A stretch of 64,000 nucleotides of DNA from an uncultured candidate division Zixibacteria bacterium. GTDB lineage: Bacteria; Zixibacteria; MSB-5A5; RBG-16-43-9. A program made the translations under genes and the position numbers. The DNA lies in contig OY970208.1 of the NCBI GenBank assembly GCA_963713865.1, positions 160,001-224,000 on the forward strand, in the 5' to 3' direction. Positions 32,170-43,710 of this stretch are shown here, in pieces; within the stretch, counting starts at the first letter, position 1; each line of letters begins with the position of its first letter. The notes beneath the pieces are model-generated. The model ran no database searches and was not told where the DNA came from. It saw nothing but the letters and a program-made list of their open reading frames with translations.

Positions 32170-32450
32170 GTAGGGACAGAACAGTGTTCTGTCCCCAGGT
32201 TATTTGCGACCCTGAGAGCGGTACTACGAAAAAGTATTAAGGATATTGAAGAAAAAATTCGTAGCGTTGCCGCTCCTGTCCTACGGATCAGTTTCTAGGA
32301 TGGCAACTATGTTTTTAATTATAGGGGATGGATTTTCCCCCCACATCTTCAGGGCGAGGTATCCTTGCCCCTACAGATTTTTTACGACCCTGTCCAGCAG
32401 TGGCTCCGCCAGACGTAGTCTCCTAATAGGAAAAGGGTCACACTACGAAA
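32170..32450. repeat. REP-like palindrome cluster
   Basis: GTAGGGACAGAACAGTGTTCTGTCCC, AGGGCGAGGTATCCTTGCCCCTAC, AAGGGTCACACTACGAAA. Confidence 0.7.
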
Positions 32451-35849: not shown

Positions 35850-36527
35850 ATGTGCGGACGTTATACCATAACCGTTAAAGAAGAAATCCTTATCCAGAGA
35901 TTCAAGGTTGAAGATTACCAGGGAGAGCATTTCCCCAGATTTAACGTTGCTCCCAGCCAGAACAATCCCGTAGTTTTAGTCAATGAAAAGAATAATAGAG
36001 CGATGTACCCTGTGAGATGGGGATTAATCCCTTCCTGGGCAAAAGAAGAGGCTATCGGGAACAAAATGATCAATGCCCGAATAGAAACAGTAGCTGAAAA
36101 ACCTACTTTCCGGACCGCTTTTTCTAAAAGGCGATGTTTAGTCCCTGCGGATGGGTATTACGAGTGGAGAAAAAACGGTAAACCGGGCAAAAAGCAGCCT
36201 TTCCGGATAGTCTTAAAATCCAGAGAGCTTTTTGCATTTGCCGGATTATGGGACCTCTGGAAGAATCCAGAAGGAGACACAATCCGCTCTTATACTATCG
36301 TCACCACAGAAGCGGATGAATTAGTGGGAAAGATTCATCCAAGGATGCCGATTATACTCAGACCCGAAAATGAAAATACCTGGATAGACCCTAATCTACA
36401 CGACCCTAATACCCTTATGAAACTCCTTTCCCCCTATCCTGCTGATTTAACCGAGATGTATGAAGTATCCTCTCTGGTAGGAAATCCAGGTGTTGACGTT
36501 GAGGATTGTATCCTGCCTGTTAAGTAA
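35850..36527 (+). CDS. SOS response-associated peptidase (SRAP; YedK/HMCES family)
   Basis: MCGRY N-terminus, WGLIPSW, INARIE, RCLVPADGYYEW, IHPRMP. Confidence 0.95.
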   Translation: MCGRYTITVKEEILIQRFKVEDYQGEHFPRFNVAPSQNNPVVLVNEKNNRAMYPVRWGLIPSWAKEEAIGNKMINARIETVAEKPTFRTAFSKRRCLVPADGYYEWRKNGKPGKKQPFRIVLKSRELFAFAGLWDLWKNPEGDTIRSYTIVTTEADELVGKIHPRMPIILRPENENTWIDPNLHDPNTLMKLLSPYPADLTEMYEVSSLVGNPGVDVEDCILPVK

Positions 36528-36598
36528 TAGTTGTTATTTAAAATGGTAGAACAGACATCTTGTCTATTCTTAACTTAATGTAGCGACTGTCTTGAAAA

Positions 36599-37524
36599 TC
36601 AAGCATTTTTTAAAATGGCATTACAGATAATTAGTAATTTGCGCATCACCGCAACCACGGCTACTTTTTTTGCCTTTCCTGAAGCTAATAACCTCTGATA
36701 AAACTCTTTTAGCTTCTGGTTAAATCTTATTGCTACCAAGACAGGCATATACAGGATCTTCTTATGAGTCCACGTCCTCCACTTATGAAGCTTTTACCTT
36801 TCCACTTGCCACTCTCTCGGTTGAAAGGTGACACCCCCGCCAACGCAGATATCTTTTTCCTATCTACTCTCCCCAACTCAGGTAAACAAGAAAGTAAACT
36901 TATAGCGGTGATAAATCCCATCCCTTTTTCCCTTCTTAAAAATCCAACCTTCCGCATAATCTGATCATCTTTTTGAGCTAATTCCTTTATCCTCTCATCC
37001 ATCAGCTCAAGCTCCTTCTCCAATACCTTGATTATCCTTTTAAGGCTTTTTGCCTTTTCCCTCTCTGCTATACGAAGCCTGTTTTTCTCTGCCACTACCA
37101 TTTCCTGCAACTCCTGCCGCCTTTTGATAAGCTCCTGAATCTCCAACTCCATCTCACTTATCTCCCCTAACTCCTCTAACTTCACCACCTGTCCAAATCT
37201 GGCTATAACCCGGGCATCAATCTTGTCCGTCTTCGCCAGTTTTCCTATCCCCCTGGCAAAATGCCTTACCCGTGCAGGATTAACTACATGAGCCTGAATC
37301 CCTAACTCTCTTAACATCCTCCTACAAACCCGCTCATACCCTCCTGATGCCTCCATAACTACCAACTCTACTTTGTTACCCCTTAACCAAGATATGAACT
37401 TCTTAATACCTTTCCTGGTGTTGCTGAAGGTCCGGCGGTGTGGATTAGCAGTATCATCTGCCAAAAGAATGCAAGCTTCAAGCTCCTCTGAACTAACGTC
37501 AATCCCGCAAACTATCTGTTGCAT
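36599..37524 (-). CDS. IS110 DEDD recombinase/transposase (1-bp frameshift near 36762)
   Basis: GIDVS, VMEASG, VVNP, KTDKIDA, RESG (Ser), ISGGR; the shifted frame continues KILYMPVLVAIRFN..FYQRL..GKAKKVAVVAVMRKLL; AAGGAGG SD. Confidence 0.93.
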
Positions 37525-37556
37525 AACTACTCCTCCTTTAGTATAATTTAATTAAC

Positions 37557-37755
37557 TTGCCTCTGGTAGCCCATACTTGCTATGCGGTCTTTTTAACCAT
37601 TCGACTGTTCGAGCTTGCAGAGGCACAAGGGACCTTGCCGACGACCAAGCTACGAACGAGCTTTTAGCCCAAGTGCGACACGATCTGTCGGCAAGGTTCC
37701 CTTCCACCATTGGGTGAAGGGTATATCCCTTATTCACCTGTAAAATATAAACATA
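37557..37755 (-). ncRNA. IS110 bridge RNA (target-binding and donor-binding loops); ends approximate
   Basis: Stem AAGGGAACCTTGCCGAC/GTCGGCAAGGTCCCTT encloses GTCGCACT and TTCGTAG (match target); stem GCCTCTG/CAGAGGC encloses ACAGTCG and GCAAG (match element junction). Confidence 0.85.
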
Positions 37756-37985
37756 ATATTCAATATACAAGTGCGACCCTTTCAGGGTCGCTTGATATAT
37801 GTGTAAGACAGTAACATCTGATTTGAAGCTTTTGTAGCGGAAACCCTCAGGTTTCCATTGGAAACTTAATATGACAGCCTTACCCTAACCCTATCTTAAA
37901 GAGAGAGGGAGAAGTATTTCCCTCCCCATAGCAGAGAGTCAGACAGGAATGTCTGATCTGCTATCGTTAGGCATAAAACACGCCG

Positions 37986-38678
37986 CTACTTAATCGCTTT
38001 GTGGATGGCACTCGCTCCAAAAAGCAGCCGTTTGAAGGTAACCTCCGAAAAACCGGCTTCTCTTATGATTTCTGCGTATTCTTCTGCTGGATAGAATCGG
38101 GGAATCGTCTGAGAAAGGTAAGTGTAAGCAGATTTGGAACCGGAGATTATCTGACCTACCGGTTTAACTGCCAACCGGATGTAGAGATGAAAGAATTTTC
38201 TGATGATTTTAGACTTCGGCTGGCTGGTCTCCACGCTCACAAATCTTCCCCCGGGTTTTAAAACCCTGTGAATTTCCTTGAGAGACTCAAGAAACTTATC
38301 GCGGTTAAGGTTTATATTCCGCACCGCAAATGAAATTGTCACCAGGTCAAAGGTATTATCCGGAAAAGGGAGGGTATTAATATCGGAGAGTATGAAAGTT
38401 ATACGGGATGACTCTTTTTTCTCCAGGGCTTTACGAATCATCGGAAAGCTGAAATCTGCAGCGAATACTTTAGTCTTTTCCGGAGCAAGCCTGCGAAGAT
38501 AAGAAGCCATCTCCCCGGTCCCAGAACAAATATCCATCCACATCTCCCCACCATCTGCAACTGATATTCTTGCTGCCTTTTTGCGCCAGAAAATATCCAT
38601 CCCGAAGGTCAAAATATGATTAACCAGCTCATAAGTCTGCGGAACCTCAGAAAAAATTTTTTTAATACCTTCTTGCAT
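37986..38678 (-). CDS. UbiE/MenG-family methyltransferase
   Basis: YELVNHILTFGMD..WR, DICSGTG, LPFPDNTFD, RVLKPGG, YTYLSQTI. Confidence 0.85.
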   Translation of the reverse strand: MQEGIKKIFSEVPQTYELVNHILTFGMDIFWRKKAARISVADGGEMWMDICSGTGEMASYLRRLAPEKTKVFAADFSFPMIRKALEKKESSRITFILSDINTLPFPDNTFDLVTISFAVRNINLNRDKFLESLKEIHRVLKPGGRFVSVETSQPKSKIIRKFFHLYIRLAVKPVGQIISGSKSAYTYLSQTIPRFYPAEEYAEIIREAGFSEVTFKRLLFGASAIHKAIK

Positions 38679-43454: not shown

Positions 43455-43710
43455 AGGAGGGGCGTATTGCAATACGCCCCTACAAAAAATGTAGAGGAAG
43501 GCTTTAGCCTTCCATCATTCGCACAACAAATGAACCTGATCCCGCTTTTGGCGGGACAAGCAGGCTCGCGCTACGAAAAAATATTATATGGAGTGCATTG
43601 ACTGTGTTAATGCTTGATAGCGACCCTGAAGGGTCGCACTACGAAACCGGTAACCTCACCGTGCCCCAAGGTGGGATTAAGAAAAAACTGGAGGGCTGAA
43701 GACCTCTTCT
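43455..43710. repeat. REP-like palindrome cluster containing an empty IS110 target
   Basis: GGGGCGTATTGCAATACGCCCCTAC, TCCCGCTTTTGGCGGGA, GCGACCCTGAAGGGTCGCACTACGAAA. Confidence 0.8.

Follow-up and report, generated by a model that had tools for sequence, protein, structure and literature searches.

An IS110-group insertion sequence of an uncultured Zixibacteria bacterium with a probable IS621-type bridge RNA directed at a REP-like repeat of its host

Does the non-coding DNA upstream of a DEDD recombinase gene in an uncultured Zixibacteria bacterium encode a bridge RNA and, if so, for which target and donor is it programmed? The question is raised by positions 37557-37755 of a 64,000-nucleotide stretch of contig OY970208.1 (the window; positions below are those of the window and its features lie on the minus strand, unless a genome coordinate is given). 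In an original prediction, this region had been read as the bridge RNA of an RNA-guided IS110 recombinase directed at a repetitive extragenic palindromic (REP) element of the host. Our analysis suggests that the region belongs to an IS110-group insertion sequence which very probably moves by RNA-guided recombination of the IS621 type. Bridge RNAs with IS110 recombinases, the targeting of REP elements by this class and its wide distribution have been in print since 2024, and the element therefore adds an ortholog and not a principle. A literature search for Zixibacteria together with IS110 returned no paper.

The whole insertion sequence spans 36582-37771 and carries a CT core at both ends (1,188 bp with one core counted). 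Its left end begins at 37769 (TGTATATT..), directly after the CT at 37771-37770, giving a left junction of ..GGGTCGCA-CT followed by TGTATATT.., and its right end terminates as ..ACAGTCG (36590-36584) before the CT at 36583-36582, giving a right junction of ..ACAGTCG-CT followed by ACATTAAG. The left end, with a length of 245 nt (37769-37525), holds the RNA gene, and the right end has a length of 15 nt (36598-36584). Three copies of the element are present in the 2.72-Mb host genome (a single contig, 40.4% G+C), namely the window copy (G000:C1:196580-197790), a second copy (L002, G000:C1:2436479-2437689) and a third, intact copy (L003, G000:C1:1081784-1082995), and these account for all genome-wide matches to DEDD_Tnp_IS110 (3/3). 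Alignment of the three copies with their flanks revealed that a single base differs between the two CT cores and that similarity is lost immediately outside CT...CT. The CT core was observed at both junctions in 3/3 copies, as evidenced in the arrangements GCGACCCTGAAAGGGTCGCA-CT-(IS)-ACATTAAG for the window copy, GCGAACCTGAAAGGTTCGCA-CT-(IS)-ACGAGAAA for the second copy and GCGACCCTGAAAGGGTCACA-CT-(IS)-ACGATGTT for the third.

Folding of 37545-37775 gave a minimum free energy (MFE) of -89.1 kcal/mol, compared to -59.2 +/- 4.5 kcal/mol for 200 dinucleotide shuffles (z = -6.65), none of which was as good (0/200). The RNA is ordered into a 5' stem-loop, a target loop module, two unpaired bases and a donor loop module. 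The 5' stem-loop GGUGAAUAAGGGAUAUACCCUUCACC (37713-37738) is modelled as helices 1 and 2, with two-sided changes in 9/9 pairs among homologs. The target-binding loop module (37627-37703) is enclosed by a 16-bp outer stem (helix 3), in which AAGGGAACCTTGCCGAC (37703-37687) pairs with GTCGGCAAGGTCCCTT (37642-37627); in the homolog alignment, two-sided changes are found in 16/16 of its pairs and 95.4% of cells are paired. Within this module lie the left target guide GUCGCACU (37672-37679; DNA GTCGCACT), which reads in the sense of the left target with its CT core, an inner hairpin GGGCUAAAAGCUC modelled as helix 4 (37658-37670), and the right target guide UUCGUAG (37650-37656), which is the reverse complement of CT-ACGAA. 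The donor-binding loop module (37559-37624) is closed by an outer stem (helix 5) of GCCUCUG (37624-37618) with CAGAGGC (37565-37559) and of AGCUCG with UGGGCU, in which 11 of 13 pairs have two-sided changes in the same alignment. It contains the left donor guide ACAGUCG (37602-37608), identical to the last seven bases of the right end (36590-36584), a modelled inner hairpin GGUUAAAAAGACC (37586-37598) and the right donor guide AU-A-GCAAG (37576-37583). A metagenome variant (37595 A>G on the plus strand, in contigs of three runs) changes a U-G pair of the donor-loop hairpin to C-G.

The stem, loop and guide coordinates and strings of the original prediction proved exact on the minus strand in every case, and both guide pairs were found inside the two enclosed loops. 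The order of stem, left guide, inner hairpin, right guide and stem also agrees with the claimed layout of left and right target guides (LTG/RTG) and left and right donor guides (LDG/RDG) of the IS621 bridge RNA, in which a 5' stem-loop precedes a target loop, made up of stem, left guide, stem-loop and right guide, and a donor loop built likewise (PMC11208158; here and below, published systems are described after the cited passages of each source). The TGGG that had been attached to the left guide does not belong to it, being a 1-nt linker and the start of the inner hairpin GGGCUAAAAGCUC (37670-37658). Both loops are drawn open here, after the IS621-type model backed by stem covariation and not after the MFE structure, because the latter adds weak intra-loop pairs. 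Three mutually complementary segments in 37700-37745, GGUGAAUAAGGG, CCCUUCACC and GGUGGAAGGG, permit two exclusive 5' foldings; the MFE structure contains the second of these, and the covariation among homologs speaks for the 5' stem-loop.

Left guides of IS621 have the sense of the top strand, and its right guides are complementary to that strand (PMC11208160). Read in this manner, loop 1 (GUCGCACU and UUCGUAG) spells the target GTCGCA-CT-ACGAA. The proposed closeness of this string to the actual insertion site is in accordance with the flanks and with the genomic copies of a guide-derived 13-mer. The left target lies in a REP-like hairpin GCGACCCTGAAAGGGTCGCA (37772-37791), the last bases of which together with CT (GTCGCACT, 37777-37770) are identical to the left target guide; agreement of the left flank with GTCGCACT is 8/8 in the window copy and 7/8 in both L002 and L003. 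The right target of the window copy is ACATT (36577-36581), giving CTACATT with the core where CTACGAA is predicted, and the right flanks of the other copies read CTACGAG (L002) and CTACGAT (L003), each fitting at 6/7 positions. A fourth copy, on the metagenome contig L092, reads ..ACAGTCG-CT-ACGAAACC and carries CTACGAA in full (7/7). All four independent insertions (three genomic, one on L092) are located at the guide-predicted site.

On the donor side, ACAGUCG of loop 2 equals the right terminus, and GCAAG (37580-37576) pairs with CTTGT of the left terminus via one G-T wobble, both as had been proposed; the right donor guide is probably longer than the GCAAG assigned to it. Pairing of the AU upstream of GCAAG with the next AT of the left end is possible if one A is skipped. 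By analogy with IS621, of which the right donor guide is discontiguous, with a wobble and flipped-out bases (PMC11208158), the guide here probably consists of AU, a skipped A and GCAAG with its G-T wobble. In 20,000 dinucleotide shuffles of the 187-nt RNA, GTCGCACT occurred in 55, TTCGTAG in 192, ACAGTCG in 222 and [GA]CAAG in 10,008, and all four guide strings together occurred in none (0/20,000).

What, then, is the target within the host genome? The guide-derived 13-mer has 24 exact copies in the 2.72 Mb, compared to 0.05 expected, and 200 shuffled 13-mers occurred twice at most (mean 0.045). With up to one mismatch, 59 genomic sites were found; the hairpin GCGACCCTGAAAGG precedes 24 of the 59, and the rest represent at least three further repeat types with the same end. 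REP elements are defined by a GTAG tag. The 13-mer sits at the CTAC (GTAG) end of REP-like hairpins, and its motif has CTAC, the reverse complement of GTAG. Three of four tested Y1 proteins score above the cut-off (80 bits) of NF047646, the model for the REP-associated tyrosine transposase (RAYT), namely those at G000:C1:2205429-2205875 (100.5 bits), 1824898-1825404 (98.9 bits) and 1449548-1449955 (94.9 bits), and the fourth (G000:C1:801428-801868) scores as IS200-type. A recombinase programmed against a host REP had been proposed, and both the 24-copy, CTAC-bearing repeat end and the presence of REP-associated tyrosine transposases in this genome speak for it. Pairing of repeat and RAYT by position gave a target site within 1.2 kb of just 1/8 Y1 genes, and no Y1 gene can therefore be tied to the target repeat. 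REP targeting is a known habit of the IS110 family, since REPs are named as insertion sites of IS110 elements in PMC11208160, with reference to the original report on IS621.

Two unoccupied targets are located in the window itself, GTCGCACTACGAA, exact, at 43633 (G000:C1:203633) and GTCACACTACGAA at 32437 (G000:C1:192437). The L092 flank and the empty REP at G000:203633 were tried as a pair of occupied and empty sites and rejected, as blastn revealed short shared repeat modules only.

Guides that direct insertion should change together with the insertion sites of related elements. A scan of species-representative genomes gave 501 relatives, of which the best 80 (35-46% protein identity) were used for the homolog analyses, with a covariance model built from this single sequence and the IS621-type structure. 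The model matched 51 of the 80 homolog loci and the element's own copy L003, always immediately 5' of the recombinase gene and on its coding strand; no match elsewhere was obtained at E <= 10, and none in the truncated relic L004 described below. In the resulting RNA alignment (37 distinct rows), 91.3% of cells pair, compared to 33-48% with slid partners, and two-sided (compensatory) changes are seen in 43/47 pairs, values that none of 500 shuffles reached; as the alignment was fitted to the model, these pairing figures lean towards it. The donor guides are kept among homologs as ACAGTCG or ACAGTTG and as GCAAG, and the same 7-mer followed by CT stands at the right ends. In the L084 group, the right donor guide has become GGAG and the left terminus CTCC, the two having changed together. 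Target guides vary widely and track the flanks, as evidenced in L037 (9/9 on both sides), L084 (right, 9/9), L065 (left, 9) and L058 (7 and 7).

For an alignment-free measure of this covariation, the longest run of letters that a loop side has in common with a flank was determined for each element's own flanks and for those of elements with other guides, taking in those 35 of the 52 model matches with both loop sides aligned. On average, the left side shares 6.0 letters with its own flank (n=23) and 3.66 with those of others (n=575), and the right side 6.71 (n=28) and 3.74 (n=700), respectively. The covariation of guides and insertion sites, proposed at the outset as a check, is thus found on both sides.

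In L068 and L083, from Dehalococcoidia metagenome-assembled genomes (MAGs), the two arms of an inverted repeat (TCTTC.CCCTCGGGAGACCTTTG and its reverse complement) enclose the element, at about 1200-1300 and downstream of the gene. In L014, L017 and L024, from Anaerolineaceae MAGs, the left terminus of the element reappears as the 5' side of the first loop (ACTGTCATTAG), the right donor guide reads ACTAATG instead and the core may not be CT. Outside the recombinase's own cluster, the nearest relatives in a large protein collection are 66-76% identical, metagenomic and named at most 'transposase', and a scan of metagenome loci gave mostly 37-48% relatives and one 99% fragment.

In IS621, the bases that directly follow each right guide on its 3' side are reported to recognise position 7 of the non-cognate DNA, and complementarity to their cognate DNA is to be avoided (PMC11208158). 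The putative counterparts here are CU in the target loop (37648-37649), of which C37649 can pair with the donor G (the last base of ACAGTCG) and not with the target A, and UA in the donor loop (37574-37575), of which U37575 can pair with the A before the core in the target. Among homologs, the C37649 position pair is pairable in 30/30 rows (27 C-G, 2 G-U, 1 A-U) and the U37575 position pair in 28/30 rows (19 C-G, 4 A-U, 5 G-U), amounting to 58/60 cells, compared to 10-65% with slid partners. This result is consistent with a handshake and not strong, because most of the cells are invariant (C-G).

In silico joining of the ends brings together a -35 box TTGATT of the right end (36597-36602), which overlaps the recombinase stop codon (TGA, 36601-36599), and a -10 box TATATT of the left end (37762-37767) at a spacing of 17 bp. 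The resulting TTGATT-17-TATATT is a sigma-70-like candidate promoter (4/6 and 5/6 to consensus) found in the joined ends only; the same scan at the same threshold gave no site in the integrated context. Homologs carry TTGAC at the matching right-end position. This putative joined-ends promoter is a consensus match only.

The recombinase gene (36599-37524) begins with an ATG at 37524, its Shine-Dalgarno sequence and ATG lying 3' of the RNA structure. In the window copy, one A is missing near 36757-36759, leaving an open frame from 37524 to 36733 that encodes 263 aa instead of 308 and is deprived of the last ~54 residues of the enzyme. The shortened frame still matches DEDD_Tnp_IS110 (PF01548, 6.3e-27) and Transposase_20 (PF02371, 1.3e-07) in Pfam. 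With NCBIfam NF033542, 'IS110 family RNA-guided transposase', the 308-aa protein scores 211 bits, the cut-off being 140. Among solved structures, its closest relative is the IS621 transposase (E 1.5e-36, residues 6-307, 129 bits), followed by ISCro4 (1.4e-34). D9, E58, D100, D103 and S238-G239, counted by hand on the printed alignment, stand opposite the DEDD residues and the Ser-Gly of IS621, the catalytic roles of which are described in PMC11208158.

The frameshift (AAGAAG compared to AAGAAAG) is common to the window copy and the second copy, and the third copy has the full 308-codon frame. The intact frame is also present in metagenomes, where contigs of runs X1, X2 and X6 (three studies) have one base more after 36758. 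As judged from its reading frame, the window copy probably yields no full-length recombinase. Because it keeps intact ends and the RNA gene, it could be mobilised in trans by an intact copy. It had been proposed that recombination be assayed with a frameshift-repaired enzyme; such a repair is unnecessary, because an intact copy exists in the genome at G000:C1:1081784-1082995 and three metagenome runs carry the intact form.

Could the frameshift of the window copy and L002 be an error of assembly or base calling, with all three genomic copies intact? The two forms are told apart by one A within a short stretch of A and G (AAGAAAG and AAGAAG), the longer form appears in the contigs of X1, X2 and X6, and the single 2.72-Mb contig suggests a long-read assembly. 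Against this stand the length of the run, which is only three A's, the third copy, which the same assembly reads correctly, and the occurrence of the same deletion at two separate loci. We regard an error as a real possibility, although the less probable account of the two.

An extinct element, with all copies relics, the frameshifts real, the 'intact' copy immobile and the RNA gene a fossil, would explain why the frameshift is common to two of three copies and why just three copies exist despite 24 perfect and 59 near-perfect free targets. Neither a joint nor a circle junction was found in the contigs of four runs, which cannot show rare forms. At least part of the stretch is contained in 20 runs from 14 studies (sediment, wetland and soil metagenomes); a 1,200-nt contig (X6, record 18) corresponds to the element alone (36580-37776), and the flanks beyond the REP hairpin differ among the metagenome contigs. 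The intact form in contigs of three runs from three studies, with differing flanks there, speaks against extinction, as do the identity of the copies apart from one base, which argues for recent spread, the copy with a full 308-aa frame and all catalytic residues, and the sibling right ends at contig ends of same-genus and same-family genomes. Extinction is therefore considered quite unlikely.

Some observations weigh against a bridge RNA of the IS621 type and are collected here. The MFE structure partly closes both loops with weak pairs (in loop 1, 5+2+2 bp) and folds the 5' part in another way, and a scan of 36400-38000 against Rfam 15 (E <= 10) gave four noise matches (E >= 1.1). The likeness of the RNA to that of IS621 was drawn from the published description of the latter and not from an alignment. 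The right flank of the window copy fits the 7-nt right guide at 4/7 positions only, and the 5-nt right donor guide is uninformative alone, because it appears in half of the shuffles; GCAAG occurs four times in the real 187-nt RNA. Among homologs, the right sides of L009 and L041 (2/28) and the left sides of L056, L013 and L076 fit poorly, and in L068 and L083 the right flank fits at 7/7 positions and the left flank misfits the left guide. The cross set in the covariation count holds related elements that share targets, by which the control is raised. To these are added the frameshift in two of three copies, the window's included, the lack of joints and circle junctions, and the composition of the 20 runs holding the sequence, none of which is on record as RNA. 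That the left end is a mere leader regulating translation of the recombinase or binding the protein, with coincidental matches or DNA-level sites, would suit this lack of RNA runs, the abutment of the structure on the ribosome-binding site and the partial closure of the loops in the MFE, but is extremely improbable given that the four guide strings came together in 0/20,000 shuffles, that they match the IS621 guides in position, order and strand sense, that homolog loops change with the flanks while stems change only in a compensatory manner, and that sites acting at the DNA level would give no reason for one side of a loop to be sense and the opposite side antisense.

Under RNA-guided recombination of the IS621 type, the element would be excised or copied into a circle, in which the joined ends would form both the donor ACAGTCG-CT-TGTAT and the candidate promoter, with its -35 box from the right end and its -10 box from the left. 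This promoter would transcribe ~190-200 nt of the left end as the bridge RNA, to be bound by the DEDD/Ser recombinase. The first loop would then pair with both strands of the target GTCGCA-CT-ACGAA, the CTAC-tagged end of the host REP-like hairpins, and the second with the donor junction, and strand exchange at the CT core would leave the inserted element flanked by CT. The element with its copies and exact ends, the domains and catalytic residues, the conserved fold, the matches of the guides to target and donor with their covariation, and the many copies of the target are read from the sequence itself; that the RNA is transcribed, that the recombinase binds it, how the reaction proceeds chemically and that the element is active at present are inferred by homology to IS621.

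All the testable sequence-level features of an IS110-group bridge system appear to be present. The resemblance to IS621 of E. coli (Durrant et al. 2024, PMC11208160; Hiraizumi et al. 2024, PMC11208158) extends to the protein family and, by alignment, the catalytic residues, to an RNA gene in a left end much longer than the right end (PMC11208160), to the order of guides in each loop, the CT core and a target at the CTAC end of REP elements, to a right donor guide of ..GCAAG with a G-T wobble and a skipped base, and to the putative handshake complementarity to the non-cognate DNA and the candidate promoter split across the joined ends. The two differ in that the protein alignment is distant (HMMER, 129 bits), the protein has 308 aa compared to 328 residues in the deposited IS621 chain, complementarity of the right target guide to the REP consensus extends over 7 nt compared to the 4 nt described for IS621, and the left donor guide stops before the core (ACAGUCG, then AA). 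Furthermore, the target and donor modules are 2 nt apart here and joined by an 11-nt linker (nt 99-109) in IS621, the target loop has a longer outer stem here (16 bp), and the target sequence and the host are different. A blastn search of E. coli genomes for the IS621 locus returned a 65-nt stretch in 19 genomes, the fetched locus being a partial, frameshifted IS110 gene; a match on a Citrobacter plasmid is a different IS110 member (E 6e-28 to IS621), and the RNA model gave no match either there or in the E. coli locus.

The ISCro4 transposase (PDB 9t56), the second-best solved relative (E 1.4e-34 over residues 6-307), is equally distant. ISPpu9 and ISPpu10 of Pseudomonas putida (PMC12288879; bioRxiv 10.64898/2026.03.19.712850) are similar in that IS110 copies lie in REP or other conserved intergenic repeats, and differ in host and sequences; the comparison with them follows their published description. 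Elements of the IS1111 group with seekRNAs share the DEDD recombinase superfamily and the RNA-guided logic. That group is characterised by an RNA in a long right end and by long subterminal inverted repeats (PMC11208160). Membership does not fit the present element, because its RNA lies in the 245-nt left end and its right end has 15 nt.

A truncated sibling of the element is found outside the window at G000:C1:596630-596745 (L004 ~1489-1600) and shares 77% identity with the initial ~90 nt of the left end. Its parts are the left half of a REP (..GGCGGGATGCCC-CT followed by TGTATATT..), ~100 nt of a sibling left end and then ACAAT. The sibling left end is cut off right after the CT in the DNA that encodes its own guide (TTGCCC-CT), and the sequence goes on as ACAATATTT. 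The relic's left guide TTGCCCCT differs from that of the window copy and matches its own, different flank ATGCCCCT. The latter belongs with a second palindromic repeat family, GTAGGGGCA...TGCCCCTAC, of which the end TGCCCCTAC has 84 exact copies (e.g. G000:C1:1388775 and 2563177-2563188); the family is GTAG/CTAC-tagged like the target of the window element, and ACAAT is its usual right side. As the DNA encoding a left guide copies the left target and core, it might act as an internal pseudo-target for the element's own recombinase and provide a route of self-truncation, an idea that we hold to be unlikely. The relic has the form expected of the leftover of recombination between a guide-coding CT and a right-end CT, with three of the four guide pairings found, and thereby gives a hint, from a single case. 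If general, the idea would mean that every IS110-group element has a built-in decay site and that engineered bridge-RNA cassettes hold a predictable off-target in their own DNA.

The element offers a worked natural example in which the guide pairs, the CT core, the probably discontiguous right donor guide, the putative handshake and the candidate split promoter can all be read from the sequence. It also provides a compact 308-aa enzyme with a natural 7-nt right target guide from an uncultured sediment and soil lineage, and orthologs of this divergence and small size are candidates in screens for genome engineering. The host genome serves as a natural read-out of specificity, with 24 perfect and 59 near-perfect targets, of which three are occupied.

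The window copy has an SRAP peptidase gene on one side and a ubiE-type methyltransferase gene on the other. In a strain variant represented by one contig of run X1, 37857 is joined to 36544 via 13 other letters, and this variant is without the element, without the REP hairpin and without part of the spacer between the neighbouring genes.

Sibling right ends were searched in other relatives as well, with no match in 38 of them, many of whose genomes are incomplete. Contigs ending with sibling right ends, ..TTGATTTTCAAGACAGTCG-CT-AC.., were observed in the same-family genome G008 (L175) and in the same-genus genome G001 (L176, L178 and L180), in the first 80 nt of each. After the sibling CT, the sequences of L175, L176, L178 and L180 begin with ACAAAAG, ACATCTC, ACTATAT and ACTATAT, respectively, the right target being AC-initial in every case.

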